This document shows, piece after piece, positions 13,101 through 54,880 of a stretch of 64,000 nt of DNA. The stretch is from the IMG/VR virus record IMGVR_UViG_3300025168_000054, positions 15,959 through 79,958 of that record. The stretch is one strand, 5' to 3'. How positions within the stretch are numbered: position 1 is the stretch's first letter; every line of letters starts with the position of its first letter. The notes below the pieces were generated by a model, which had not been told where the DNA came from, made no database searches, and was given only the letters and a program-made list of their open reading frames with translations. The position numbers were made by a program, and so were the translations under genes. Source of the DNA: a virus.

Positions 13101-16100
13101 GTTTTGCCGCGGAGTCACTGCTTGAAACTGAGATGGGGCGCGAGACGCTTGACATGCTCATCGCATCGGGGTCTCTCCCGATTCCTTATGAGCTGACCTC
13201 GCCTGGCCGCAGGCACCTCGCCGTAGTCGACATGGCTCGAGCCACAGGGACTGCCGTGGGCATGCTGGGGGGCCTTGTTGCCGCTGTTGGCGTGCCGGAT
13301 GCGACCGACTTCTTGCTTATCCCTAAAGTCATGAAGACAGGTCGACGTGCCTATCGTTTGATCAAGGACATTGACTTGTCGGTTGATGGGCTCGAGGCGC
13401 TCACAGAGACGAAGACATTCTCTCGGGCTGTGGGGTCGCGCTCAGAGATGTTCCTGCACGGAGAAGCTCGACGCACCACACTGGCCCAACTGGCAGCGAC
13501 GCTTGAGCAGACGTCGGCAAAGGACCTGCAGGGTGCTTCGAGCGACGAAATCGCGACTCTTCTTCAGTTGGTCGATGATATTCTCGACACTTCCCGTAAG
13601 CAGGATGCGACAGACGGGGTCTTCCGTAACGATCTGACAGCCAGCGTGAAGATCGAGGTGGACCTGGAAGCAGAGAGTGCGCTGAGACTTCGAGCAGAAA
13701 CTCAGACGCCCGCAGGGGAAGCCGCTCGGTACGCGTTGGACAAGGACCTCTCGAAGGACGTTCACGCCACTATCGTTGAACTCATCAAAGAGGCGTCGGC
13801 GTCAAAGGACCCTCGGCGAGTCGAGTTGGCCGAGGCACTGGGCGAGCGGCTGAAGGCTTCGCAGCTGCGCGAAGCCGTGAGCCTCTCGCCAGGCCAGACA
13901 GACGCGTTTTTGTCGGCCGCAGAAGAGGTGGTTGGTCCAAAGAAAGTCTTCGGATTCACTGAGCGTATCGAGATTCTCCGTGACGCACTCCTCCTCATCG
14001 ACCCTGCCTCCGATGGTATGGCGATTCGGAAGAAAGTGTTCAGTCGCCGGGTCACTGAAGATCGCCTTAGTCGCGTGGCCAACACGGACACTGCCGACCT
14101 GCCGGGCTTTGTCGATCCGACTCTGAGCAAGGGCTTGGACCGCTACGGGCCTGTGACCGAAGAGGCTCTTAAAAAGTCTCTAAGCACTGTGAGATTGGCT
14201 GACGCCAAGAAGGGTGAGATCCTCCAGGCTCGCACAAAGCTGCAGGGTTGGCACGATCGGTTCAAGGCCGCGGTAGCCGACAACAGCATTCTTGACCCTC
14301 AGGTTCGGAGCGTGTTGCTCGACGAGTTCAAGGCAGAGAAGCTCGGAGATTCAAACTACCGGGTCTTCAGCAACTCCGATCGAAGCCGACAGAGTAGCTA
14401 CTACCGAGGCGTCATAAAGGGCATCGAGGGTGTCGCAGGAGATGCGACCAACGCGGCGTTTGGTCAGAACATCCTGGCTCGGGGTCTTCAAGGCGTACTC
14501 GCTGCCGCTGATTCGCGCGGGGCCGCGTACAAGAGGTTCGCAGTCGCACTGGTCGACAAGAGGAAGCTCGAAGCGCTGGATTCCAGCATGGACGCCGAGA
14601 AGTTCCTTGCAGGCGGAGAGACCGCTCTGCGCATGCGGAGGTTCCGCTACGCGCTCCAGTCAGCCACGAAGGAGGGAGTGATGCAGATCATGCTCTCCAA
14701 TCCTGTGATGAGTCGGCTGATTCCAGAAGGCATTCGCGCGCAGTACGCTGTGTCCGCTTCGGCGAGGATGGCGAAGCGTCAGGAGATGCTGCGGCAGGGC
14801 AAGTCTCCGCTGGACCTCACCAACTTGCTGAAGCGAGAGGCTCTGACGAAGCTTTCACAGCGTCTGGCAGTGGCAACGACCAGCGGCGATCAGGCAATGG
14901 CCGCAAAGCTGACTGCCGACATTGACGAAGTCAAGTCTCCGCAGTTCTTTGCCAGGGTTTCCCAGTGGATGGACGATTCCATCACAGAGGTGAAGACCGC
15001 AGCCGCTGAAGGTCGAGAGCCGAATCTTCCCGGCATCGAGCTTCCTGTTGGGATCGACCCCGCCATCGTCAACCGTATGGACATGGATCCTAAGCCGCTG
15101 AGCGCTACCCGTAAGTTCTTCAGGGAGAGCTACTCGCCGGCGTTTGGTTTCGGTGCGGTGGAAGAAGTCCCCGCGGGTCCCTTGACCGCAGAGTTGCGCA
15201 CACGGCGTGCGCGACTTTCTACCTCGGAAAAGCTCGCCAACGAGGTCGTTCTTGACCACATGCTTCGCTACATGGCAGGCGTCGATCGAACCGACACCCG
15301 CGTCATCGCAGAGCGCAAGGTCACCGACTTCCTCGAGAAGCGTCTGACGGTTCGGTCAATCGGGTCGTATGACTTCGAGTCTCGTCGAGTTGAGCTGCGT
15401 ACGCAGCTTGATGACTTGTCTGAGCAGATTGCCCAGAGACGCTTCGGCCAGTCGGTCAACGACCTGGAACCACGAGCGCGCGTCCAGGTTCGCAGCGATG
15501 CGTTCAACGTCATCATTCCGTTGATGACTGACTGGGAAGCATCTTTGATCTTGGCACGCTCGTCAGAAGAGCTGAAAGAGATCCTCGCGAACGCACGCCT
15601 CATCGGTCCGCGGCTGCCTGGCGAGGAAGCCGGAGACGTCATTCTCTCGACCTTGTTTCAGGACCCGGAGTTTATGGCGCGCCTGCGTAAGACAGGCGGG
15701 GCTACGCGACGTCGCCGCAAGGCAAAGCCTGCCGCAAAGGCGGCACCAGAAACGGCGGAGACTACAGAAGCTCCCGCTCTGCCCGCTGCATCCGCCGTAG
15801 ACACGGCCGCAGCAACCGACCGCCCGGCTCGGCGCACCCGTCGGGCGGCAGTCACTATCGACAAAGAGGCAGCTCCGACTGGTCAGGTGTATGTGGCTAA
15901 GGTCGACGAGCTCGACGAGGGCGTACCTGACTCAGTGCTTGAGGCAGAGTCTGCCTTTGGTAACTCCGCGCTGCTGTGGAGCAGTCTCAGTGATCGTATG
16001 GGCGGCCTCCTCGAACAGAGTGAGGTACTGCGTGGTTCGCCTACCTTGGGGTCGGCTTCGTCTACCGTTGTCGGTCAGCGCGCAGTGGGCAGCATCGGCC

Positions 16101-19100
16101 GGCAAGTCCTCGGAGTCATGGTCGAAGGTCTGCAGGGCCTTAAAGCAGAGGATTCCTCTGACTTCTTCGTCAAGTTCGCGGAGGCGCTTAAGTCGACAAG
16201 TCGCTTCGACGAGCCCATTCGTTTGGCCGTGACTAACAACCCGGAGGTTGTGGTCACGTTGGCAGAGGTGTTCAGCAAGCAGGCTCGAGGCAACCTGACT
16301 CAGGCAGACGTCACTGCCGTCGAAAACCTGCTGCGTAAGGCGGGTGTACTTTCAAGCGAGTTGAGTGCGCAGGACCTGCTGAAGGTCAACGGCGAGGAAA
16401 CCAAGGCGGCACTGGCGGCAGATACGGTTGCTCGGGCCGATGAGTTCGTACCGTCTCCCGCAGCTACGAAGGCTACTCTGCCTGAGGAAGTTGCGCGGAG
16501 CTCTGCGCTCGAGGAGGCCGTCGAAAACATCGCCAAGGCTACGGGCTCCGATGAAATCCGCAGGCTGCTCACGGACTTGAAGGACTCTGACCACGGGCGA
16601 AACATCGAGGCCGTGCTTCGGGCTATCGACATGATCGGCCCCGAACGACTCAAGAACATCTCACTGGTCATTGAGCCGGCAGAGGGCCAGTCCGCGGCGA
16701 AGCGGATGTTCGACTTCACCAACGAGACCATCCGCGTCTACGACGACGCTCTCGAGTCCGGCGAGTTTACGCCTGAGGTGCTGTCGCAGTTGTGGCAGTC
16801 GCTGACTCGGTATGTGCCTGACGCTGAGGTCAAGGCCCTCAAGGACGAGTGGCTTAAGGAGCGCGACGCGTTCATGCGGGCGAACCCTGATCGCTTCGGT
16901 CGGGACATGACTCCGATTGGAGACTTTGTTCCAGACGAAATGACGCTCCTGTCCTTTGACCAATGGATTGCTAACGCTGCCCGCAACGTAGTTCTCGCGG
17001 AAATAAACCCAAAAATCACAAATAACCCGGTCCTTCAGGCTTTCGTCGACACGGTGTCTGCGCTTGTCGAGCAGTTCAAGCTGCGCGGCAAGAAGGTCGG
17101 GGCCATGGCCCTGGAGTTCTTGAACAAGGGCAGCCAGAAGTATCAGGAGATGGTGCGCGATGGCTCCGTGGACACGGCGATTCGCCGAGCGACGCCTGAG
17201 CAGTACTTCGGTGAGCAGCTCAAGTGGCAGGCGTTCCTCGACAACCCTGACGCGCGCAAGCCCTCAGTCAAGGCCGTAGGCGAGATGGAAGCCATCGACG
17301 AGTTGATCGATGGTGCTGCTGAGACCACGGTTAAAACTGTTGAGACATTCCTTGCGGAACGCTTCGGTAAGCGCGCGATTCTTACCGAAGAAGGTTTTTC
17401 CCTTCTCAAGGCAGAGGCTGTCAAGGACGATGTCTCTCGCGTACTGTTTTCGGGGGTCGCCGCGCGGCTGCAAGAGCTGGGTGTGTCGGCCCTCGATGCA
17501 GAGGGCAAGCCGCTGTCTCCCTTCCAGATGACGGAGCTGTTCAAGGAAGTGCGCCGCGGTTTGGTCGAAGAAGCCGCGGACGCGGCTAAGCAGGAAGGTG
17601 GCGAAAACTTCAAGAAGGTACAGCGGCTGGGCGAGTTGGAAAGCGAACTCGCCAAGTTGCGCGCCGCGGGTGAGACCGAAACTCCTCGCGTGATCAAGTT
17701 GAGCGAAGACATCAACGAGCTTGACGCTGACCTTCGGGCGACGGCGGAAAGTGCCGGCGAATCGACGTCTCCGTTCCAGCGTATGCTTGAAACGAAAACT
17801 CAGTCAGAGCGAAAGGTGCTCGCACAGAGCATCCTCGACAGTGTCGTCGCTGTGATCGCAAAGATTGATGAGTCTCCTGGGCCGATGACTCTGGATGAAC
17901 TGCTCGAGGGAGTTGAAGATCAGAGTGTCATCAACGAGGTCCGGCACTTGCTTGGCGTCGCCGGCAAGCGCGGTGACCTCTTGTCGCAAGTTCGAGATGA
18001 CGGGCGCCTGCTCCTGGCAAGAGCCCCTGGCCGCGTAGTGCTTCCCGAAGAAGACCTTTACGTCCAGACGCTTCGGGCGGAGGCTGAAGGTCGCGCGTAC
18101 GAAGCCGACGAACTCGCCGATGAGGTTGACAAGATCCTCGGTCTGAGGCCTGACATTGCTCGGGACGAAGCTCGTAAGCTGGCTTCGGGCTACCTCGAAG
18201 AGCTTCGACAGGCCGCAGCCACTGCTCGCCGTCAACGGCTTGAGCGTGGGGCTATCGACGCAAGTATGCTGGACGAGCTTTTGCTGAACGAGGCATCGTC
18301 TCTGGCAGCTGACGCCGCACGCACGGGTCTGCGGGCCGACCTCGATGTACAGATTGATGAGATCGTCGCCGCCGTCCCCGACGCAGGGACGGTGCCGTTC
18401 AACACGACGAGAAAGGTCTCTGACGACTTCGACATCGTTTCTTTCGAGTCAAACCCTGGGGTCGAGCAGGCCGCGTTTGCCTTGTCCAACGCGAGCAGCC
18501 TCAGAAAGAGCCCGCCGAAGAGCATCAAGAAGGGCGCGAACGAATCGGCCGAAGCGTTTGCTGCGCGGAGTAAGCAGCTCATGGCGACAAACCGCTCTGC
18601 GGCTATCACGCTGGTCATCGACATGTTCGAGGGTCTGCGCCCTTACATCGCGCTTCCGGCCGAGATTGTAGTCAAGCGCAACAAGGTCGATAAGACCATC
18701 TATCTAAAGGACGTCCTGCCTGGACAGGACTTTAGCAAGCTGCGGGTTTTGGATACCAAGGCGTTCTTGAAGAAGTACACCGAGCTGATCGAGGAAGCTC
18801 TCAAGGAGCAGGGGCTACTCGAAGAGGTCAAGTCACTCTCGTCGGCGATGCAGAAGAGCGAGTTCGACGACGCCGTCGCGCGTGCTCGTAAGCAGAAGTC
18901 CGTAGAGGCCGAGCCTGTGGTGGAGCCTGCGGCAGTTGAGCCTGCAGCCGCTCGGACGGCTACTGACGACCGGTTTGTGTTGAAAGCCCGTGAGATGTTT
19001 GACGACGGCAAGACTCCTCGTGCCGCGGAGAGTGTGCGAGAGGCCATCGAAAAGAACGCGGGATCTGGCGCCGCGAAGGCGTTCGGCGATGAGTACAAGT

Positions 19101-22100
19101 CCCTCAGAGACGCCGCTGTTCAAGCCCGTGTTCGTCAGGACGCCGCTGAGGCCACCACCGGTGCCGCTGAGCCTAAGGCGACTCCTTCTCCCACGGTTGC
19201 TTCGCCAACGACTACGCGGTCTTTGCCCAAGGCAGGAGAAAAGCACACGCCGCCGACGCCAGCAGAGGCTCGCGCAGAGACTGCTGCCGCGCCGAGGAAC
19301 GAACGCGGTGTCTCACTGGGCAACCCGGCACCTTCCAGAGATGACCTACCTAAGATCGAGACGGTCGTTAAGCCCTACCGCGAGATGGGCAAGCAGTCTC
19401 CTGAGACGTTGGCTGAGCACGCGAGTGCTCGTGGAATCGACCTCGCCGATCACTCGACGCCTGAAAGTCTCGCGAACGCTGTGGGTCAGGCAGACGTAAA
19501 GTCTGCGCGCGTGGCGCAGGCTGTGTCGGGTGACGCGCCTCCGGCCGCGGCCAAGGCGGCACCGCCTGAGGCCTTTGCCGCAGCGGCAGACATCACTGCC
19601 GCAGAGGCGAAGACCGTCAATGCGATAGACGCCATGGTCGATGCGCTCGCACCGGAGAACGCAGACAAGGTCGCCAAGCGTGTTGCACGTCTCCAGAAGC
19701 TTATCGACAAGTCGGAAGAGATCGAGGCGCTTTCAGCCAAGCAGGTGGTCGACTACGTCTTTGACGACCTGGATGTTGGCGCGCGAGAGACTCTGGCGAA
19801 CTCCGGGGCAATCGACGACATCGTCAAAGACCTGACGAGGATTTTCAACCAAAACGTCGCGGACGTAAAGCGAGAGTCTCGGCGGCTTCGTCGAACCTTT
19901 GAGAGTCTGCAGAAGCTCGCCAAGAAGCTGGAAGGCAAGGATCGTGAGCGGGCTCTCCGTGCTGCTGCCCGAGCGGAACGGCAAGCAACATCCATGGAGG
20001 AAGCTCTTCGCGAGCTCTTGAGGTCTGACCGGCTGGACGAGTTCGCCGATCTTCTCGAGACTGAGCGAGCAGCCGGCAAGGTTCGGCGGAAGGCAGAAAA
20101 GCAGGCCCGAGAAGAGGCCATCATCTCGTTCATCAGCCGTGGGGCACCTCCCCGCCCTCCAGGTACGCCTAAGACCCCGCGCAATCGCGGAGTAGATAAG
20201 GTCCCTAAGAACGTCAAGGGGATGGTGTATTTCCTCGACGACTCACAGGCGATTATCTACGCGTTCAAGTCGGCAGATGCTGAGACAGGTCTCCACGAGA
20301 TGGCGCACGTTTTGCGGCGCAACTTGCGGGACGCAGACCTCCAGGTTTCTTTGGGCTGGGTCAACTCTCAGCTGGAAGCGCGGGGCATGGAGAAGGTGCG
20401 CCTGGCTTACGGTGTTGACAGCCGGACGGGCAACTTCATTGGTCGAGGTGACTCTGTTCACTACGCCGAAGAGCTTTTTGCTGAAGGCTTTGAGCAGTAC
20501 ATGCGCGAGGGCGTGGCCCCGACGAAGATGCTCGAGAACGTCTTCAAGATCATGAAGGAGCTTCTGCACAACATCTTCGTCTCGGCCAAGCGACAGCCGG
20601 AGAAGATTGAAATCAGTCCTGAGATGTACGCGGTGTTTGACCGCGTCTTCGGGGCAAAGCAGACGTTCACGATGGACGACATGCCCGACGCGATGATGTT
20701 CCTCAACGTGCAGGACGACCTCGGTCGATCTGTCGTGGGCCTGGGTGGCCGGCTTGAGACTGACCTCATCCTTGAAGACACTGTGACAGGTCGTTTCCGC
20801 CAGCTTGAGATGAGCCTCGACGACTATCGCCGTCGCATGGGCAAAAGCGGCGAGGCGGGTATCGTCGGCAAGGTCGCGTCGAAGCTGCCTACTCCTAAGG
20901 CGGCTGTGGGTGGTCTCGGCTTGGGTTCACGAACCAGCCAGTACCTTGACCCTGTCAGTAGCCGCGTGCTGTCTGCCGAAGACCGCATGCTTCTCAACAG
21001 GTTCCGCCGCGGTGAGATCGAAAGGTCTGATCTGCCCAACCGACTTCTGCCTGAGATCGAGAAGGGCTTGCGTGTGACTGGTGAGGCGGCGGTGCTCGTT
21101 GGCTCGCTCACACTGAAGGCTGCGCGCCTTATGTACGGCGACGATGCTTCTCGCGTCATCCGCACGTACAACCCGGCTCAAAGAGTCCACATGAAGGCGG
21201 GAGCGAGGGAGGGTGAGGAGTTCTCTAACGGCGCGTCAGTCTTGATCAACGACATCTCTCGACGCATGGGTGCCTCTGCCGAACGCGCGCTGAACGACAT
21301 CATCAGCTACTTCTCAGGTCAGTCGGCGCAGCTGTTGACTGGGTCGGAGAGAGGTAAGAGACTCAATGCTACGAATGTAGACATCTTCGAGCACGTCTCG
21401 AGAATGTTCCACGACATGCTCTGGAGGATGGACCCAGAAGCGCGGGTTGCCTTGATACAAGCGGCAGAAAATCGTTTGAGCAAGCCGCTGCACGCGACAA
21501 CTCAGGATGACATCCTTCCGCTGTCAGGTTTGTGGAACGGCTACGTCGTCCGCAACCGAGCAACCCCAGAGAAGTCGGCGCTGTCATTTTCCGGGGAAGG
21601 AATCTTGCTGAGCAATGACTACATCGACGTAGTTAAGCCTGGACTTGCGAAGGGTGGCTCTATCGAGATCGATAGTTTTTTGCAGGACACTCTCGGAGAC
21701 CTCTATGTCGCAGTGACCGGGCAGCCCCTCAGTAAAGGTACGAAGGTTCCTCCCACAGCCTTGGATATGGCTGCGCTGCTCGTGCTTCACTCCGGCGGCT
21801 CGATGCTGAAGGCTTCCGATGGAAGCGCGGTTCACCTTGACCAGGTCTTGAAGGCCGCCGGCGTGAGCCGCGGAGAGGCTTTGATCAAGGGCGTTACCGC
21901 CGAAGTCAACGGCTCGACCGTCAAGGTCCCCGGACTCATGACGACGTCAGTCGCCGTTGAGCGTCGCTTGCCAGTGCTCATGTCTCTGGGGCATGCCGGG
22001 TTTGCGTCAGGCATGCTCGACGACGCGGCGAAGTGGGGCTTTGGTCTTACCGGACGAGAGTACCGAGCGTTCATGCGCTACGTCACAGGTCAGCAAGGGG

Positions 22101-24709
22101 CCATGTCTTTGAGCGATATCGAAATGGCGAAGAGCGTCATTAGCCGCTTCGGTATTTCGGCAGAGTTTGTCACCAACTCACGTCGTCATGGGCAGTATTA
22201 CCTCCCCAAGCAGGCTCGAGACGCGCTGCGAGACCAGATGTCGCAGGCAGCACGGCAGTTTGATTACGGCGAGAAGGGTGGGAAGAGCTCCGTCGCAAGA
22301 GACGCCTTCGGCATCTACAACTCGTTGCTGTACTCAACGATGGTGTTTGGGGCAGTTGTAGTCAAGCCGTTCTACCGGCTGGCGTCGTTGATCGACTTGG
22401 GTCTCGGTGCTCTGGGTATGGGGGGCGCTCGCGCAGCCACAGCTGCGGTCACACGAGCAGGCGTAAGTACCTTGCTGGCGTTTGCTTACGAAGGGTTCCC
22501 GCTACTGTCTGCGGAACGCGCCGCAGAAGCTGTGGGGCTTGCCGGAGACGCCGGCCGCGCGGTTGTTCGACGTGTTCGAGGTGACGTAGATTCCGCGAAA
22601 ACTGTGTTGGATTTCAAGCAGCAGATTCGCGATGTAGCAGCCGAGTCTGGAGACAACCTTGCTCGTATGATTACCGAGACTTCAGCCAGCGCGAAGTACC
22701 GCCCGGAAGTGCGCCCCATCATGGAAGCGCGAGCAGACATGATCTTCGTCATCAATGGTCGTCCTTACCGGGCTTCTGACCTTCGGCGCATCTTCGTTCG
22801 GTCTGGCCTGTACAACAACATGTTCAAGTCCATCAAGGCCACGTACATGGCGGAGGGCGGTTCGCTCACTGAAGTCATGGACCGGGTGAAGCGCAGCGTG
22901 AAGGAGAAGTACGGAGATGACGCGGCTAACGTGAAGATGCTCGACAGCTTCCTCGAAGAAACGACAGACACGAAAAATCCGTTCAACATCATGGGCGGTA
23001 TCCGCGGAGCCGGTGACATGGCTCTTCGTCACGGCCTTGAGTCTGCCGACGCGTGGGCAGACCTTGAGCGCACAGGTCTGGCGGTCACATTCATGGAGTT
23101 GGGCCACTCACCGCAGACGGCGGCCCGTATGGTCGTTGAGGCGGTTTACGACTACCGAGGCTCTATGACCTCGGCTGATCGCAGCATGTTCAACAAGGTG
23201 ACGCGACCGTTCTTTGCTTTCACCAAGAACGCGATTCACCATCTCACAAACATGATGAGCTCTCCTCTCGGGCGGTTTTACGCTCGTTCGATGGCGAAGC
23301 TGCCGTTCCTTTCAGCTGACGCTGCGACTGCGGTGCTGTACGAGTTCCTGGTCGGACCTTACGGAATCAACACCTCCGCGATGAACTCAAGCGAGGTCAA
23401 CGCGTACTACGACATGAGAAACTTCCTCGAGTACGGTCTGGGCGAGCAGGTTGACCGAAATACTCTGCAGCAGTACCGAGAGATTCTGCCGGATGAGGCA
23501 AAGGACATTAGCGACCAAGAGTTGATGGACCACGACTTCGGCGGATGGACCATCCGCAACGGGTACAACGGCTACGACAACGTGCCGGAAGACGCTCGAG
23601 TGTCTGTGCGTGCTTTGATCGCCAGCAGGTCGAAGCTGTACGCAAAGGGCCGGTACCTGTACGTTGCGAAGGTTCTACAGGACGAAGAACTTCGGGAGGA
23701 GTTCGTCAAGCTTGGTGGAGCTATGGCGGTTCAAGATGAGCCCAGCCGTCGCGGGCAAGCTTCCTATATGTACAACCGCTATCCGACGATTCAGGTTCCT
23801 TTTCCGGTGCTGAACGCCAGCGCGCAAGAGGCGATGCGGCTTGGCCTCAGTGATTCCGTTTACTGGATGCTGCCGGATAACTTCGTCCACTCAGGCATCG
23901 CCGAAGCCAGCGCCATGATGGCTACAGCGTTGGTTGTTCTCGATGAATCTTTGAATGCAATCCCAGGGGGAAAGCCATTCTTCCCCGACGTCGCGGCAAC
24001 GCGTGCCCAGCGTGCGGCAGCGCCTTTGATAGACATACGCGGGTACGGCAGTCCGATTGCTGCCGACATCATCAAGGGCGGCGCCGCGTTGTTCGGTAAA
24101 GGCAACTTGTTCGTCGAAGTCGACCCGCTCATCGCACGCGTGCTGCAGGGGTCAATGATTCCTGTCGCTAACGCCGACGACATCGACGAAGATGACCTGG
24201 GTATCTTGCTTCAGCTCGCCCAGTCTGACCCGGAGCTTTACAACCAGGCGATCAAAGTCTTCAGCCAGATGATGGGCGGCAGCGTGGGCCGAGAAATACA
24301 GTTCCCTGCCTTTGCAGACGAAGTTCGAGCTGCGCGCATGATTGTCAAGGACGGTAGGCGAGAAGTCGTGTTTGCCAATCGCGGCGGTGTCTTTGACCGT
24401 GAGTTCCTCGAAAAGGGCGCTAAAGACTCAAGCGAGAAAGCCGTCCGAAAGAAGCCGTTTCTGGTTGGTAAGTCCGCGGTGCTGTTTAAGATCACGCCGC
24501 TGGGTCAGCTCAATCAGGCGCTCTTGCAGTACCGTAAGACTCCTCAGGAAGGTCAGCTCGAAGCACAGAAGGAGCTTCGGTCGGAGATTATCCGCTTCAT
24601 CACAGCCCAGGGCCGACAGGTCGGTATGCGTACTTCCGGGGCTGACGAAGAGCGCGTGACAGAAACAATCGAGCGGGCTGCGAACAAGGTCTTCGAAGAG
24701 TACAAGTGA
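10124..24709 (+). CDS. Giant internal virion / large polyvalent protein (muramidase-like and zincin metallopeptidase-like domains)
   Basis: 4861 aa; AVTKAES...GAFGEFQVTG...LAKEYYG; ADAETGLHEMAH...EELFAEGFEQY; C-terminal VYDY...PFFAF motif. Confidence 0.8.
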   Translation: MSYLTSLEKRASFPLRPAEQKEEVKVDEVAAPAAPAFTSTVPGTGIRPISDLLPSEGKTPEYSFGDVPTPKENPFDIAFGSREKVAALYSEIVDTTARKRYEAGQLAEKYNFDDQEEEGFFVGLAKEAGETLMGREILPREPSDEKVVLKRTDVDSYMVESPVSVSGRPSPVTGLSQLVLGASAIDPESRPARELKKQGRTAKKIPNAEDIRVNVTNERLRAAFISQAKDKESGAQSYSAYVQRIADNLAKEGKDATFRDAQLFIAGNVIARLPKPAGQGDPGIVVAQRDAVNLVSQYTDPSFTRGLAQTLPMAPLRLGVAGSEKLGDRIDPSRVFDPYVEEDTEMKRSDPLGARARGPMTASEAERAQFLEQRMFFPVDFEYDEDKSLKTSTTAAQTMNDLIVDGSLILGGAEGNFDDMYGERSVTEVYSSKVISGESDQNRLIALAAKAGIPVDKTYAVTKAESTGNPASFAFNLHLGQHNPKDPSNPRNRTAEQEQRLRQLMASEGLKVNFESRAAQNYYGKNARRALDLAAAINPVAAVQGGAFGEFQVTGKYGDALGYVKETFPEVETDEQAAGVFLNMFKQSPGVVGDDMFVRWFQRNPDAQKAANDGDISGLAKEYYGSLSDPEEVGISAAEKARREKQVETRDGWVGRATNASEAYLGGMIDSARKATRPEAQSAETSTDDPPTSLSQQGLLENESVFTSEESREDISQVEEALQLRAVEVETGVSTVMTMFGDMAQAPTPGSSAFIAAVAPIKDAKENDAQLYTVVKDNRDAPMGTGYRNVANFLFERKVNTTLGERSLSDLSAEETKRLKAEARQEAFAVVTSAQTENLWRTSFYTSFDYLLGEEADSVFAAMAPRIEVMGRTKDGFVFRQEGDVLAAAAALDAPAVLGQSFNIGVIGNYLFPAIEAAYTEYEQGNRGAASLAFAVTGETVAAVAGSFGAYIPYSNDIGVEFLNEVHRAGVQGVAERQNFVEVGLSSGADVFGFAAESLLETEMGRETLDMLIASGSLPIPYELTSPGRRHLAVVDMARATGTAVGMLGGLVAAVGVPDATDFLLIPKVMKTGRRAYRLIKDIDLSVDGLEALTETKTFSRAVGSRSEMFLHGEARRTTLAQLAATLEQTSAKDLQGASSDEIATLLQLVDDILDTSRKQDATDGVFRNDLTASVKIEVDLEAESALRLRAETQTPAGEAARYALDKDLSKDVHATIVELIKEASASKDPRRVELAEALGERLKASQLREAVSLSPGQTDAFLSAAEEVVGPKKVFGFTERIEILRDALLLIDPASDGMAIRKKVFSRRVTEDRLSRVANTDTADLPGFVDPTLSKGLDRYGPVTEEALKKSLSTVRLADAKKGEILQARTKLQGWHDRFKAAVADNSILDPQVRSVLLDEFKAEKLGDSNYRVFSNSDRSRQSSYYRGVIKGIEGVAGDATNAAFGQNILARGLQGVLAAADSRGAAYKRFAVALVDKRKLEALDSSMDAEKFLAGGETALRMRRFRYALQSATKEGVMQIMLSNPVMSRLIPEGIRAQYAVSASARMAKRQEMLRQGKSPLDLTNLLKREALTKLSQRLAVATTSGDQAMAAKLTADIDEVKSPQFFARVSQWMDDSITEVKTAAAEGREPNLPGIELPVGIDPAIVNRMDMDPKPLSATRKFFRESYSPAFGFGAVEEVPAGPLTAELRTRRARLSTSEKLANEVVLDHMLRYMAGVDRTDTRVIAERKVTDFLEKRLTVRSIGSYDFESRRVELRTQLDDLSEQIAQRRFGQSVNDLEPRARVQVRSDAFNVIIPLMTDWEASLILARSSEELKEILANARLIGPRLPGEEAGDVILSTLFQDPEFMARLRKTGGATRRRRKAKPAAKAAPETAETTEAPALPAASAVDTAAATDRPARRTRRAAVTIDKEAAPTGQVYVAKVDELDEGVPDSVLEAESAFGNSALLWSSLSDRMGGLLEQSEVLRGSPTLGSASSTVVGQRAVGSIGRQVLGVMVEGLQGLKAEDSSDFFVKFAEALKSTSRFDEPIRLAVTNNPEVVVTLAEVFSKQARGNLTQADVTAVENLLRKAGVLSSELSAQDLLKVNGEETKAALAADTVARADEFVPSPAATKATLPEEVARSSALEEAVENIAKATGSDEIRRLLTDLKDSDHGRNIEAVLRAIDMIGPERLKNISLVIEPAEGQSAAKRMFDFTNETIRVYDDALESGEFTPEVLSQLWQSLTRYVPDAEVKALKDEWLKERDAFMRANPDRFGRDMTPIGDFVPDEMTLLSFDQWIANAARNVVLAEINPKITNNPVLQAFVDTVSALVEQFKLRGKKVGAMALEFLNKGSQKYQEMVRDGSVDTAIRRATPEQYFGEQLKWQAFLDNPDARKPSVKAVGEMEAIDELIDGAAETTVKTVETFLAERFGKRAILTEEGFSLLKAEAVKDDVSRVLFSGVAARLQELGVSALDAEGKPLSPFQMTELFKEVRRGLVEEAADAAKQEGGENFKKVQRLGELESELAKLRAAGETETPRVIKLSEDINELDADLRATAESAGESTSPFQRMLETKTQSERKVLAQSILDSVVAVIAKIDESPGPMTLDELLEGVEDQSVINEVRHLLGVAGKRGDLLSQVRDDGRLLLARAPGRVVLPEEDLYVQTLRAEAEGRAYEADELADEVDKILGLRPDIARDEARKLASGYLEELRQAAATARRQRLERGAIDASMLDELLLNEASSLAADAARTGLRADLDVQIDEIVAAVPDAGTVPFNTTRKVSDDFDIVSFESNPGVEQAAFALSNASSLRKSPPKSIKKGANESAEAFAARSKQLMATNRSAAITLVIDMFEGLRPYIALPAEIVVKRNKVDKTIYLKDVLPGQDFSKLRVLDTKAFLKKYTELIEEALKEQGLLEEVKSLSSAMQKSEFDDAVARARKQKSVEAEPVVEPAAVEPAAARTATDDRFVLKAREMFDDGKTPRAAESVREAIEKNAGSGAAKAFGDEYKSLRDAAVQARVRQDAAEATTGAAEPKATPSPTVASPTTTRSLPKAGEKHTPPTPAEARAETAAAPRNERGVSLGNPAPSRDDLPKIETVVKPYREMGKQSPETLAEHASARGIDLADHSTPESLANAVGQADVKSARVAQAVSGDAPPAAAKAAPPEAFAAAADITAAEAKTVNAIDAMVDALAPENADKVAKRVARLQKLIDKSEEIEALSAKQVVDYVFDDLDVGARETLANSGAIDDIVKDLTRIFNQNVADVKRESRRLRRTFESLQKLAKKLEGKDRERALRAAARAERQATSMEEALRELLRSDRLDEFADLLETERAAGKVRRKAEKQAREEAIISFISRGAPPRPPGTPKTPRNRGVDKVPKNVKGMVYFLDDSQAIIYAFKSADAETGLHEMAHVLRRNLRDADLQVSLGWVNSQLEARGMEKVRLAYGVDSRTGNFIGRGDSVHYAEELFAEGFEQYMREGVAPTKMLENVFKIMKELLHNIFVSAKRQPEKIEISPEMYAVFDRVFGAKQTFTMDDMPDAMMFLNVQDDLGRSVVGLGGRLETDLILEDTVTGRFRQLEMSLDDYRRRMGKSGEAGIVGKVASKLPTPKAAVGGLGLGSRTSQYLDPVSSRVLSAEDRMLLNRFRRGEIERSDLPNRLLPEIEKGLRVTGEAAVLVGSLTLKAARLMYGDDASRVIRTYNPAQRVHMKAGAREGEEFSNGASVLINDISRRMGASAERALNDIISYFSGQSAQLLTGSERGKRLNATNVDIFEHVSRMFHDMLWRMDPEARVALIQAAENRLSKPLHATTQDDILPLSGLWNGYVVRNRATPEKSALSFSGEGILLSNDYIDVVKPGLAKGGSIEIDSFLQDTLGDLYVAVTGQPLSKGTKVPPTALDMAALLVLHSGGSMLKASDGSAVHLDQVLKAAGVSRGEALIKGVTAEVNGSTVKVPGLMTTSVAVERRLPVLMSLGHAGFASGMLDDAAKWGFGLTGREYRAFMRYVTGQQGAMSLSDIEMAKSVISRFGISAEFVTNSRRHGQYYLPKQARDALRDQMSQAARQFDYGEKGGKSSVARDAFGIYNSLLYSTMVFGAVVVKPFYRLASLIDLGLGALGMGGARAATAAVTRAGVSTLLAFAYEGFPLLSAERAAEAVGLAGDAGRAVVRRVRGDVDSAKTVLDFKQQIRDVAAESGDNLARMITETSASAKYRPEVRPIMEARADMIFVINGRPYRASDLRRIFVRSGLYNNMFKSIKATYMAEGGSLTEVMDRVKRSVKEKYGDDAANVKMLDSFLEETTDTKNPFNIMGGIRGAGDMALRHGLESADAWADLERTGLAVTFMELGHSPQTAARMVVEAVYDYRGSMTSADRSMFNKVTRPFFAFTKNAIHHLTNMMSSPLGRFYARSMAKLPFLSADAATAVLYEFLVGPYGINTSAMNSSEVNAYYDMRNFLEYGLGEQVDRNTLQQYREILPDEAKDISDQELMDHDFGGWTIRNGYNGYDNVPEDARVSVRALIASRSKLYAKGRYLYVAKVLQDEELREEFVKLGGAMAVQDEPSRRGQASYMYNRYPTIQVPFPVLNASAQEAMRLGLSDSVYWMLPDNFVHSGIAEASAMMATALVVLDESLNAIPGGKPFFPDVAATRAQRAAAPLIDIRGYGSPIAADIIKGGAALFGKGNLFVEVDPLIARVLQGSMIPVANADDIDEDDLGILLQLAQSDPELYNQAIKVFSQMMGGSVGREIQFPAFADEVRAARMIVKDGRREVVFANRGGVFDREFLEKGAKDSSEKAVRKKPFLVGKSAVLFKITPLGQLNQALLQYRKTPQEGQLEAQKELRSEIIRFITAQGRQVGMRTSGADEERVTETIERAANKVFEEYK

Positions 24710-45207: not shown

Positions 45208-45255
45208 TTAGTTGTTGAGCGCAGACATCAGACGACCGTTCAAGACGTCAGGCAT
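45208..45255 (-). CDS. 15-aa minigene or gene relic (MPDVLNGRLMSALNN)
   Basis: Same RBS and first codons as the upstream gene. Confidence 0.4.
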   Translation of the reverse strand: MPDVLNGRLMSALNN

Positions 45256-45503
45256 GTCTCTCTCCTGTGTGATTGATCTGGTGCCCGTAGGCAAAGTGTC
45301 CGTTGTCCAGGTCCACGACCACTCGGTCCTCTGACACCGTGGTCCAGAGAACCTCGGTCACCTCATGCCCGTACTTTTCGCCGGGTCGCTCGGTCACCTC
45401 CAGGTGGGTGACCGTTGCTTTGAGGGGTGCGTCACGTCCCCAGCCTCCGCGCCAGATGACGACGTCTCCAACCTTCAGTACGTCAGGCATGTCTCTCTCC
45501 TGT
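45245..45503 (-). repeat. 24-bp exact direct repeat ACAGGAGAGAGACATGCCTGACGT (45245-45268 and 45480-45503)
   Basis: Exact match read from the sequence; partial third copy at 45762-45781. Confidence 0.9.
45248..45490 (-). CDS. SH3/KOW-like small hypothetical protein
   Basis: LKVGDVVIWRGGWG...LDNGHFAYG.QI. Confidence 0.7.
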   Translation of the reverse strand: MPDVLKVGDVVIWRGGWGRDAPLKATVTHLEVTERPGEKYGHEVTEVLWTTVSEDRVVVDLDNGHFAYGHQINHTGERHA

Positions 45504-45512
45504 TGAAGTGAC

Positions 45513-45770
45513 TCAGGTGTTGCCGGCGGAGTTGCCGTCTACCCAAACTTGGTAGTCGTCATACGGGTAGTTGAGCAGGTAGTCCGTGCCTTTCGGGGCA
45601 ACCCTCCTCTGCAGGAAGTTGCCCTTGCTGTCACGCAAGTCGCGGATGACCCAGGCATCCTCCGACTTGTCAGACCAGTAGAACGTGGAGCCGTCCTCGA
45701 GAAGATCGAGAGCGTGAGGCGTGAGCGGGCCCATGCCACAGGCGGGGGGAAGTGAGTGAGTGTCGGGCAT
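45513..45770 (-). CDS. Hypothetical protein
   Basis: RBS AGGAG. Confidence 0.7.
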   Translation of the reverse strand: MPDTHSLPPACGMGPLTPHALDLLEDGSTFYWSDKSEDAWVIRDLRDSKGNFLQRRVAPKGTDYLLNYPYDDYQVWVDGNSAGNT

Positions 45771-45779
45771 GTCTCTCTC

Positions 45780-46166
45780 CTACAGGTTGATGCCGCACGC
45801 CAACGTGTGCGGCTTTCCGTTTGTGACGTTGAAGACCGCGAACTGGCTGGTCAGCAGCGGTTGGTTGTTGCCCACCACGAACGTCTCGAGCTCGTAGGGG
45901 TTGTACCGAACTGCCTGCTCCGTTCCGTCGAGCAGGCTGAGGTGAGTGATCCACCCCTTGGCGTAGGCATGGACATGCTCCCTGCCCTCACGCCTCACGC
46001 GAGCACGGCCGGAAGGTTGCACCCTCCAGGTCACGTACTTCAACACGATGCGCTTGGCGTACCCAACCACCAGGGCATGCTGTCGCACACTCCATTCTCG
46101 GCGGCGCTGGTTGAAGTACACCTGCACCGGGCGCTCTCGGTCGAAGAGCTGGTGGGTGCGCTTCAT
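45780..46166 (-). CDS. Conserved phage hypothetical protein
   Basis: VYFN....WSVR...GRARVRREGREHVHAY motif. Confidence 0.75.
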   Translation of the reverse strand: MKRTHQLFDRERPVQVYFNQRRREWSVRQHALVVGYAKRIVLKYVTWRVQPSGRARVRREGREHVHAYAKGWITHLSLLDGTEQAVRYNPYELETFVVGNNQPLLTSQFAVFNVTNGKPHTLACGINL

Positions 46167-52457: not shown

Positions 52458-52697
52458 TCAGCGGGACAGTGCCCGCTTGAGGGTGGGTGCCTTCGGCTGG
52501 AAGGCGGACAGGAAGACTGCACCTGCAGCCTTCCTCATCTTGCGGAGAGCACGGGCCTTGCGGTCGTACTCCTCGACCAGGGCGACGAATGCGGTCATCG
52601 CATCGTCGTTCCCGTCGCCGGGATACTCGGCGTCCATGCGCCGCCTGAGGCTGCGCAACTCCCGCTGCGCAGCTTCGATCTTTCGTGGCTGTTTCAT
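52458..52697 (-). CDS. Hypothetical helical protein
   Basis: Tiles in the early operon. Confidence 0.6.
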   Translation of the reverse strand: MKQPRKIEAAQRELRSLRRRMDAEYPGDGNDDAMTAFVALVEEYDRKARALRKMRKAAGAVFLSAFQPKAPTLKRALSR

Positions 52698-52701
52698 GGC
52701 A

Positions 52702-53145
52702 TCAGCCGTACTTGCTGAGGGCGTGGTCGCTCCAGAACTGGGCCGCTTCGATGGCCTCGTGGGGCTTCATGCCCGAGTCCCACCACTCTCGGGGAGCGAC
52801 AGTGGACCCGATGCTCCCGTAGGCGGTGAACACCTTGGGGTCATCGCCGGCGACGCCGATGACCACCATGTGGTCTGCCGGTCGGCACGGGCGGTTGATG
52901 AGGCGGCTCGGGCCGGGGCGGTTGCCCCGCTTCACGTACTCCACCTCTTCCTCGGGGACGGACTCGTCACCACAGTACGGACCGTACAGAGCCGACTGGA
53001 GCGTGCCGGCCAGCTCCTCGAGCGGGACGGCATCGACGAAGAATCCCTCCCGCACGCTCATCAGGATGTCGATGAGCTTGTGGTGTCTCTCGTCCAGCCC
53101 GTGGTCAGCGTGGAAGATTGGCGTGCCCTTGGGGGTAGCGGTCAT
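52702..53145 (-). CDS. Conserved phage hypothetical protein
   Basis: LYGP..GD...RGNR.G.SRL...TAYG...APRE.WD...FW..HAL motif. Confidence 0.75.
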   Translation of the reverse strand: MTATPKGTPIFHADHGLDERHHKLIDILMSVREGFFVDAVPLEELAGTLQSALYGPYCGDESVPEEEVEYVKRGNRPGPSRLINRPCRPADHMVVIGVAGDDPKVFTAYGSIGSTVAPREWWDSGMKPHEAIEAAQFWSDHALSKYG

Positions 53146-53295
53146 GGTTCTCTCCGATGCAGGCTGAGTGAACGCACGACGAGCAGACCTGCGGACATGC
53201 AGGAGCCTGCTGCGCTCGCCGTGCGGGATGGTTGCTCAAGCGCATGAGGCTGCTCGACCCTGTCGGGGAGCGGCGTCACACCTTGGCGCGATTGC

Positions 53296-53429
53296 TGGGA
53301 GCGGAGGGCATCGAACCCTCTACCGTCAAGGTCTCGTGTCGAGGTGATCAGCCTCTCCACGGCAGCGTCCTCAGGTGATCAGCCCGTGAACATCTGCGCG
53401 ACCAACGGCCCTTACCAACCGGCGCTCCC
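53296..53429 (-). ncRNA. tRNA-like RNA with a long hairpin replacing the anticodon arm
   Basis: Acceptor stem GGGAGCG/CGCTCCC + A; T-arm GAGGG-TTCGATG-CCCTC; GG-containing D-like loop; 134 nt. Confidence 0.7.
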
Positions 53430-53537
53430 TCAGGATGAACCTGAGGCCCAATCAAGGCTCTCCTCTTGCGAGGTTGTAGGCGTGGAATCAGACGCCTCGT
53501 TACTTGTATACCGCTGCCTTGACTCAGCGGTGAGTGG

Positions 53538-53762
53538 TCACGGGATGAGGTAGGAAACCTCAACCTCGTACAACCCGCTCCACTCTCCGAACGGGTCGAT
53601 CACTGCATCGCAGTGCTCGACCTCCGCCAGGAACACCTGGCCCTCATGGGTCACCGCGACGCGGAGACCCACTTCGATTGCTTTTCCGACGATGAAGATT
53701 GCGTCTTCATCGTCGGAGAAGTTCGCCTTACTCAAGGCGAACTGTCGCAGGGCGGGGGTCAT
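53538..53762 (-). CDS. Hypothetical protein
   Basis: RBS GGAGAGAGAC-ATG. Confidence 0.6.
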   Translation of the reverse strand: MTPALRQFALSKANFSDDEDAIFIVGKAIEVGLRVAVTHEGQVFLAEVEHCDAVIDPFGEWSGLYEVEVSYLIP

Positions 53763-53775
53763 GTCTCTCTCCAAT

Positions 53776-53822
53776 GCCGGAAGGAAGGAACCCACACACA
53801 TCTCCGGCGGGGTGCATGTGGG
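53776..53822 (-). promoter_or_regulatory. 5'-UTR H-type pseudoknot motif, copy 1
   Basis: S1 CCCACAUGCA/UGUGUGUGGG, S2 GCCGGAG/UUCCGGC, 3 nt before GGAG. Confidence 0.6.
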
Positions 53823-53868
53823 CGTAGGTTGTGCAGGTTGGTGATCCGGTCCTGCGCCGGGGTGGGGG

Positions 53869-54183
53869 TCAGCAGGAGCGGCGCAGGCCGCGGCATCCCA
53901 CCGGACGACCGCTCTCGTCGCGGACGAGGTCGCCTGGGGAGAGAACGTCGTCTCGGGGAGCCGCGCTGGCGACCATCCCCGAGACGACGAAAACGGTGCC
54001 CTCGACGGGGGCGGGGAGGCCGGTGACCTCCCCGCAGGCGGTGGTCACGGTCGGGATGCCACCCACAGGGGCGGCCTCCTCGCTGACGGTCGCCACTCGG
54101 GCGACCTCTCCCGAGGGCGGGATGGTGACCACACCGCCGGGGGCGTGGATGTTGAGGGCGTGAGGAGTGAGGTTGATGAACAT
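53869..54183 (-). CDS. Conserved phage protein (NLTPH family)
   Basis: INLTPH...IPPSG.VARV...VVS..V...R.D.LSP...VRD..GR.VGC. Confidence 0.8.
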   Translation of the reverse strand: MFINLTPHALNIHAPGGVVTIPPSGEVARVATVSEEAAPVGGIPTVTTACGEVTGLPAPVEGTVFVVSGMVASAAPRDDVLSPGDLVRDESGRPVGCRGLRRSC

Positions 54184-54197
54184 GGTGAAGCTCCAAG

Positions 54198-54246
54198 GCC
54201 GGAGAGGAAGGAATGAACCGCAGACGCCTCCGGCGTACGTCTGCGG
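54198..54246 (-). promoter_or_regulatory. 5'-UTR H-type pseudoknot motif, copy 2
   Basis: S1 CCGCAGACG/CGUCUGCGG, S2 GCCGGAG/CUCCGGC, 3 nt before GGAG. Confidence 0.6.
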
Positions 54247-54299
54247 ACAGTAAGGCACACCGACATGTCATGCCGGTGTGAGGTATGCCGGAAAGTGTG

Positions 54300-54880
54300 T
54301 GACACTTCCGGCGGGGGGATGAACCTCCGGTGACGTGCTGTGCTCCTTATGTCACAGCCACGTCTTTGCTCCGAAGGCTCGAAATAAAACTGTCACAGAG
54401 GGTCACACGGAATAGGCCAGGAAGAACCTGGACTATCGTTTCGGGCAAACATTGTCCGATTACACGAGACGTAAGGAAGAACCTCACCTCTCGCGGGCGG
54501 TGACACAACTGAGACATTCGAGACAGTACCTGCCCATAGAGAGAGGTACTTAGGGGGGGTATGGAGGCTCCTCCCCCCTTGGAAGGGGGTAAACCTCACA
54601 CGCCACGAGACCCTCTAATAATCAGTATACATTAGATCATATTGTAATCTATCAGGTTGAACCTTGATAAAAACGAATGACCCTCTGTGACGGAAACCGT
54701 TGTCCGTCTGCGCTGACGTCGAGAACCCGCATGGGCAGGGCCTCGGCGTCTGCGGAGACGTGCGGCAGAAGTGCTGATCTGCTGATTGTAGATTCAACAC
54801 TCCTCCCGCTACGATTTGTAGCAATCACCCGCACAGTTCGTCGTCGTCCTCCCACGGCTTGGGAGCGGGAGGAAACTTGA
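54300..54880. other. Non-coding, lower-GC region; candidate replication origin or early promoter region
   Basis: No credible ORF; AT-rich core near 54615-54680; recurrent GTCAC/GTGAC; inverted repeats. Confidence 0.45.

Follow-up and report, generated by a model that had tools for sequence, protein, structure and literature searches.

Does the 134-nt sequence that lies between two early genes of a marine phage, and has the acceptor stem and T arm of a tRNA with a long rod in place of an anticodon arm, specify an RNA of its own and, if so, of what kind? The window (i.e. the whole stretch of 64,000 nt that was analysed) covers bases 15959–79958 of a complete virus record of 79,958 bp with direct terminal repeats. 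This genome, of about 60% G+C, comes from marine metagenomes, and neither the phage nor the wider region of the element matched any of the GenBank phages. Its genes, which use GGAG-type ribosome-binding sites, include those for a primase/helicase and for a family A DNA polymerase that has a 3'-5' exonuclease domain; the polymerase type and these sites suggest that the host is a bacterium. Genes for SmpB, a CCA-adding enzyme and an integrase are all missing from the phage, and Ro60/TROVE (PF05731) is absent from the complete 79,958-bp genome, with matches obtained in control genomes. A 4861-aa open reading frame on the plus strand (10124–24709) gave no Pfam family at E up to 0.001.

The locus comprises the following features, all on the minus strand, those of the gap and its two genes being taken from the open reading frame list and the remainder from the sequence and its minimum free energy (MFE) fold.

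53538–53801, minus strand: the 87-aa gene on one side of the gap.
53146–53537, minus strand: the non-coding gap that contains the element (392 nt).
52702–53145, minus strand: the 147-aa gene on the other side of the gap.
53296–53429, minus strand: the whole tRNA-shaped element, from G+1 to the discriminator A (134 nt).
53423–53429, minus strand: acceptor 5' strand GGGAGCG, paired 7/7 by Watson-Crick pairs with 53297–53303.
53410–53422, minus strand: D-like region CC-GGUUGGUAA-GG, a stem of at most two pairs and a loop containing GG, with no U8.
53400–53409, minus strand: rod 5' strand GCCGUUGGUC, which replaces the anticodon stem and pairs with 53322–53333, leaving a UU bulge.
53362–53397, minus strand: hairpin A, 13 pairs with two interruptions and the loop CUGAUCA at 53376–53382.
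53335–53361, minus strand: hairpin B, 4+4 pairs around tandem G.A/A.G and the loop CUGAUCA at 53345–53351.
53322–53333, minus strand: rod 3' strand GACC-UU-GACGGU.
53304–53320, minus strand: T arm GAGGG-UUCGAUG-CCCUC, with G53, U54, U55, C56, G57, A58 and C61 all canonical.
53296–53303, minus strand: acceptor 3' strand CGCUCCC and the discriminator A (53296), followed by GCA, so that CCA is not encoded.

The sequence of the element does not behave as a coding region. GC content by codon position is about 0.65/0.45/0.75–0.87 in real genes of the phage and 0.70/0.56/0.66 and 0.60/0.64/0.53 in the two open reading frames that overlap the element, neither of which carries the coding GC3 signature. 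The first of these, a 72-codon GTG frame (53142–53360, minus strand) that starts inside the element and whose TGA overlaps the ATG of the 147-aa gene (ATGA), is not coding-like and is probably an accident of the high G+C content. Neither a sigma-70-like promoter nor a minus-strand terminator was called in 52600–54400, so the element should be co-transcribed with its neighbours. The leader that separates it from the 87-aa gene (53430–53537, minus strand) holds three further hairpins: ACCGCUG-AGUCAAGG-CAGCGGU directly 3' of the stop codon of the 87-aa gene, AGGCGU-CUGAUUCC-ACGCCU, and CCUCAGG-UUCAU-CCUGAGG, which overlaps G1-G2 of the acceptor and could compete with the acceptor stem.

The 147-aa protein has 108 homologues, mostly on marine phage and metagenome contigs and including some that are 90% and 76% identical to it, and the invariant residues of this family include H12, A13, D14, H15, G16, P118, R119, E120, W122 and D123. 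It belongs to no Pfam family and has no sequence match in the PDB, and its AlphaFold model (pLDDT 71) found no Foldseek match in the PDB. None of the neighbouring proteins was assigned to a Pfam family, and two of 10 fell into PHROG families that were weak or without a function. Elsewhere on the minus strand, start regions that read GGAGAGAGACATG plus conserved upstream bases recur at 45239–45268, 45474–45503, 45762–45781 and 53746–53775 and precede several small early genes, whose ribosome-binding site is similar to the 5' strand of hairpin B (GGAGAGG).

All of the sequence features listed in a preliminary description of this locus were found in place when the minus strand was read from 53429 to 53296, including the missing U8 and the missing G3-U70 pair: position 8 is C and the third acceptor pair is G3-C70. 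The element is tRNA-shaped and keeps the elbow, as had been proposed, in the form of an acceptor/T-arm minihelix and a GG loop, with no anticodon arm. Measured against canonical tRNA (RF00005) it has the 7-pair acceptor stem with A73, at pair probabilities of 0.67–1.0, and a T arm with the signature bases; it lacks U8 and a D stem of 3–4 pairs, and its anticodon arm is replaced. The D-like stem is the weakest part of the fold (two pairs and a 9-nt loop in the MFE structure, probability 0.41), and a 3-pair alternative (G10-C23, G11-C22 and U12-G21) is about 9.5 kcal/mol worse, with a probability of 0.01. A leucine-type (class II) D arm was looked for and not found, the element having C8 C9 and the loop GGUUGGUAA; the best score of the D region among 90 tRNAs was with a tRNA-Ile, not a tRNA-Leu, and the region is of a generic GGUAAGGGC type rather than specifically leucine-like.

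The last 25 nt of the element, when any two bases are allowed at the end of the T loop, match 22 stretches of bacterial genome, and the 17 of these that were inspected with ARAGORN are ordinary tRNA-Lys(UUU or CUU), tRNA-Leu, tRNA-Tyr and tRNA-Ile genes. This 3' end is thus that of ordinary bacterial tRNA genes, and the shell is therefore tRNA-derived.

The space of the anticodon arm is taken by 88 nt, comprising the rod and two hairpins. In order, the fold consists of the acceptor, the D-like stem, a 10-pair rod that forks into hairpins A and B, one linker base and the T arm. The preliminary description had given the interior as the rod CCGUUGGUC/GACCUUGACGG, and this rod does belong to the MFE fold (–63.3 kcal/mol, z = –2.5), with pair probabilities of 0.82–0.99. 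Those of hairpin A reach 0.97–1.0, and values of 0.8–1.0 are found in all helices but the D-like stem. Folding the entire 406-nt intergenic stretch leaves the tRNA-like fold in place. A 12-nt direct repeat, GGCUGAUCACCU, occurs at 53384–53373 (copy 1, within hairpin A) and at 53353–53342 (copy 2, within hairpin B and including GAUCACCUC) and nowhere else in the 80-kb genome, and the 7-nt loop CUGAUCA is identical in both hairpins. It had been suggested that the two copies pair with each other. Ten of the 12 positions allow such pairing, but a fold constrained to contain it reaches –53.7 kcal/mol at best, about 10 kcal/mol worse than the two separate hairpins. Outside the 12-nt core, the tops of the hairpins differ in ways that keep them paired: C44-G58 in one corresponds to G75-C89 in the other (both sides changed), and G45.U57 corresponds to A76-U88 (one side changed). 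These compensating changes favour the two-hairpin form.

A T arm abutting a perfect acceptor stem is more than chance readily gives. A descriptor made of a 5-pair Watson-Crick T stem, a TTCRANN loop and then a 7-mer perfectly complementary to a 7-mer 60–260 nt upstream found one match in the real genome, at the site of the element. When the whole 80-kb genome was shuffled 1000 times with its dinucleotides preserved and both strands were searched, six of the shuffles contained a match. At its default setting, with introns allowed or not, ARAGORN called neither a tRNA gene (0 in the whole phage genome) nor a tmRNA in window or genome, and its tmRNA search did not call the element at the default or at the relaxed threshold. 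Rfam 15 gave no match at gathering scores and, for the element, none at E up to 10. The silence of ARAGORN and Rfam and the lack of a SmpB or Ro60 gene bear out the view that this is not a normal tRNA, tmRNA or YrlA.

Among known RNAs, the closest in layout are the small stable RNAs of phages T4 and T5, i.e. T4 rnaC (species 1 RNA, 139 nt), T5 RNA1 (144 nt) and T5 RNA2 (125 nt), sizes as annotated, which are described as 'small, stable RNA' or 'tRNA-like stable RNA with unknown functions'. When folded here, these RNAs showed a canonical T arm and a terminal acceptor-like stem around hairpins that are not those of a tRNA. Like the element they are phage-encoded, about 120–145 nt long and carry a GGUUCRA T loop beside the acceptor-like stem. 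The claim that the element is new in kind is consequently not supported, since T4 rnaC and T5 RNA1 and RNA2 are long-known phage tRNA-like stable RNAs of the same layout. The similarity in sequence is limited to the T arm, however, and there are further differences. The T4 and T5 RNAs lie inside tRNA gene clusters, whereas the phage studied here has no tRNA gene; T5 RNA1 has a leucine-type D arm (UG-CCG-GAAUUGGUAGA-CGG), whereas the element has C8 and a D stem of at most 2–3 pairs; and the insert with twin CUGAUCA loops is found in the element only.

Two other families share parts of this design. In the tRNA-like domain of tmRNA (SsrA), too, the D stem is reduced, a long helix stands where the anticodon arm would be and the 3' acceptor strand follows directly on the T arm, but the likeness is one of layout only. 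In tmRNA, which measures some 260–400 nt against the 134 nt of the element, G3.U70 is universal, whereas the element has G3-C70, no pseudoknots and no credible tag frame. YrlA (Rfam RF02553), which occurs in phages too, likewise mimics the tRNA elbow and T arm and has no anticodon. In YrlA, however, it is the Ro60-binding stem that the two ends of the RNA make up, with the tRNA-like module in a distal position; in the element this topology is reversed, the ends forming the acceptor stem, and there is neither an Rfam match nor a Ro60/TROVE gene.

An identical copy of the element is present in one other IMG/VR phage (IMGVR_UViG_3300006735_000002, 81.6 kb). Within IMG/VR the exact 25-nt 3' half was found in this sister phage only, which amounts to saying that no other insert was seen on the same shell. 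All copies found are 100% identical. They sit in a block of 1125 bp (52699–53823) that is 98.2% identical between the two phages, with flanks that are 67–86% identical or unalignable, and 20 of the 20 mismatches in the block fall outside 53114–53783. The block consists of the 147-aa gene, the element and the 87-aa gene, and the mosaic pattern of identity between the two phages suggests that it was exchanged recently as a cassette. Metagenome contigs from independent studies carry a variant with 10 substitutions in 52948–53020 and three at 53165–53167, and a second strain has substitutions from 53625 onward; no substitution is listed inside the element in these variants, and the flanking genes differ. 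This constancy is weak evidence of selection, as recent exchange explains it just as well and the invariant stretch enters flanking coding sequence. The one RNA run that has sequence in common with this locus, a wetland metatranscriptome (X20), yielded a 204-nt contig that agrees with the window at all of 71 bases (53830–53900), short of the element, wetland being an odd habitat for an otherwise marine phage.

Searches beyond the sister phage were negative. In a 73%-identical relative (L007), the homologue of the 147-aa gene has a different gene upstream of it and lacks the element there. The same relative carries a motif of about 30 nt (GCGCGCCCTTTCGTGCGTTGGGGCA...) twice (about 2085–2125 and 2425–2460), shortly before the ribosome-binding site of each of two successive genes and after a GC-rich hairpin; it looks like a repeated terminator/promoter or regulatory unit. 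Synteny of the flanking genes (147-aa and 87-aa proteins) across IMG/VR and the JGI metagenomes, covering 80 metagenome and 26 viral related loci, plus two, plus one, placed the element only in the sister contig. Covariance model R1 gave a best non-self match of E = 0.85 in 400 kb of related loci, none being credible, and no credible match in five related phage records, in which ARAGORN and the T-arm/acceptor descriptor found one ordinary tRNA-Thr only. A blastn search of the element against 50,697 GenBank phage records returned T arms only, and IMG/VR scans for the repeat pair, or for the repeat plus the T loop, returned only protein-coding repeats (mostly multiples of 3) and one prophage gene family. 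In these comparisons of sequence the element is an orphan, and the copies found, being identical, show no covariation between homologues.

We conclude that the element is a genuine tRNA-derived, anticodon-less structured element, and that it most probably represents a tRNA-like small phage RNA comparable in kind to those of T4 and T5, in which the insert is new. Its fuller interpretation, as a phage gene for a small non-decoding tRNA-shaped RNA in which a tRNA 'shell' carries an insert as cargo, is one to which we give an even chance of being correct. The parts of a tRNA that processing enzymes read are intact in the sequence (the acceptor, the canonical T arm, the discriminator A and the GG elbow loop). 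The element would be transcribed within an early polycistronic RNA, host RNase P would cut at G+1, and RNase Z or exonucleases would trim after A73. Completion of the 3' end would fall to the host CCA-adding enzyme, because CCA is not encoded and the phage has no such enzyme. The RNA may then accumulate as a stable species, the tRNA body giving it precise ends and stability as in T4 rnaC and T5 RNA1 and RNA2. The insert would be the working part and the tRNA body the frame that presents it, and the two identical loops might bind a partner that is dimeric or has two sites. A further effect of excision would be to part the mRNA upstream from the one downstream. Such an RNA cannot read codons, and charging by enzymes that read the anticodon or G3:U70 is unlikely. 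Counted against this interpretation are the z-score of the fold, which is only –2.5, the absence of the element from relatives, the lack of tRNA genes in the phage, and the identity of the element within the shared block, which may reflect recent recombination and not selection.

The main rival, which we consider rather unlikely, is that the fold is a pure processing signal, serving only as punctuation at which RNase P and RNase Z cut the early RNA; the excised RNA would have no function, and the cut would uncouple the stability or translation of the 87-aa and 147-aa mRNAs. What is perfectly kept is indeed only the acceptor/T-arm minihelix, which is what RNase P and RNase Z need, and the element has a gene of its own strand on either side and neither a terminator nor a promoter called nearby. 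There is also an established precedent for tRNA-like mRNA end formation in the t-elements of plant mitochondria, tRNA-like structures that form part of mRNA precursors and, by recruiting RNase P and RNase Z, define transcript ends (PMC1920247). These differ from the phage element in belonging to an organelle system and in carrying no elaborate cargo, and for the phage element we infer the processing itself. An 88-nt insert and a duplicated hairpin with compensating changes would moreover be unneeded, a minihelix or a plain tRNA being enough, and related phages do without the element at the same gene junction.

It is improbable, in our judgement, that the element is the remnant of a decaying phage tRNA gene (a pseudogene) that took up a short duplicated sequence at its anticodon region and is now without function. 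The last 25 nt, shared with ordinary bacterial tRNA-Lys, tRNA-Leu, tRNA-Tyr and tRNA-Ile genes, the loss of U8 and of the D stem, and the restriction of this orphan to one lineage would all be expected of such a remnant, and selection is not demonstrable from identical copies in a recently shared block. Decay, however, should have hit the acceptor and T arm equally, yet none of the 12 pairs of the acceptor and T stem is lost and every conserved position of the T loop is kept, and the D and anticodon regions have been rebuilt into a structure that is continuous and stable; preservation as uneven as this is not the product of uniform decay. The insert is closed by a perfect rod drawn from former D-arm and variable-region nucleotides, the whole folds well alone and in context, and dead sequence is rarely kept in compact phage genomes.

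We give very little credit to the idea that the 12-bp direct repeats are a DNA signal that binds a protein, as an operator, an origin or a methylation-sensitive site, and that the tRNA-like pairing is incidental. The repeats are exact, contain the palindrome TGATCA with a GATC site, lie 31 bp apart from start to start (about three helical turns) and are set in a large non-coding gap. Against this, the motif occurs nowhere else in the genome, and the idea would explain neither the canonical T arm abutting a 7/7 acceptor stem nor why compensating changes hold both copies in hairpins.

Hardly credible, and largely refuted, is a decoding tRNA with an intervening sequence (tRNA-Ala CGC with a 67-nt intron) or a miniature tmRNA. 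With introns allowed and its threshold lowered, ARAGORN does call a tRNA-Ala(CGC) here, a poor one with a 67-nt intron, G.U pairs in the D stem and a variable loop of 3 nt, and lacking G3:U70; since seven more calls, with 'introns' of 143–909 nt, come up in the genome at this setting, the call carries no weight. The preliminary description would have been refuted by a score as an ordinary intron-containing tRNA, and the element does not score as one, ARAGORN calling it at the relaxed threshold alone. It does share its order of parts (acceptor, stemless D loop, long helix, T arm) with the tRNA-like domain of tmRNA, and a frame GCA GAU GUU CAC GGG CUG AUC ACC UGA can be read in the insert. Both forms of this reading face the silence of ARAGORN at default, of its tmRNA search even when relaxed, and of Rfam; alanine identity is ruled out by G3-C70, the fold has no 3-4-3 bulge-helix-bulge and no Rfam intron match, a group I intron would not fit into the 66–67 nt of the insert, and a tmRNA would be expected to come with pseudoknots and a SmpB gene, both of which are missing. 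We know of no way in which bacteria could splice such an insert. The remnant of an integration site was rejected, there being no integrase and the 5' acceptor strand being present.

If the element is indeed a shell with a cargo, the cargo itself bears one suggestive resemblance. The 12-mer GGCUGAUCACCU equals the universal 3' tail of 16S rRNA, GGCUGGAUCACCUCC, minus one G, this tail being known from the universal reverse primer AAGGAGGTGATCCAGCC. In the predicted fold each hairpin presents GAUCA single-stranded in its loop, followed by the CCU(C) of the anti-Shine-Dalgarno sequence, and in hairpin B this CCUC pairs with GAGG, much as in a Shine-Dalgarno duplex. GAUCACCUC in hairpin B corresponds to nine of the 10 bases of the site read by the GTPase Era, whose KH domain recognises GAUCA and CCUCC (PMC10582724). 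Local alignment of the element to a 40-nt 3' end of 16S rRNA beats 99.3% of its mononucleotide shuffles, in a comparison that was made after the fact and in which the 9-mer alone is not rare. That the cargo is a double mimic of the 16S rRNA 3' tail on a tRNA frame must, from sequence likeness of this sort, be held decidedly doubtful. Mimicry of an isoleucine anticodon loop (CU-GAU-CA) was rejected, since real tRNA-Ile has its closing pair the other way round and the loop here has C at position 37; this likeness is therefore weaker than the resemblance to the 16S tail. Antisense targets of the 12-mer within the phage are at chance level, and in the literature we found no description of a phage anti-Shine-Dalgarno mimic or of an anticodon-less tRNA decoy.

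Were the mimicry of the 16S tail true, the RNA could occupy Era, the 3'-end maturation nuclease YbeY or a defence nuclease that clips the tail, and ribosome function could thereby be redirected or protected during infection. Stable RNAs that resemble tRNA have been on record in T4 and T5 since the 1970s, and to our knowledge no function has ever been assigned to them; the possible uses of the tRNA frame are narrowed by every further example whose insert is different and interpretable. The present one is unusually simple: it combines one shell with one insert, its two identical loops look like a host RNA motif that is well defined, and there are no phage tRNA genes to complicate matters. Should the tRNA body prove to be a natural scaffold that stabilises and presents small RNA modules, it would be a counterpart of the 'tRNA scaffold' that is engineered for RNA expression and would add an RNA-based layer to the takeover of the host by phages.
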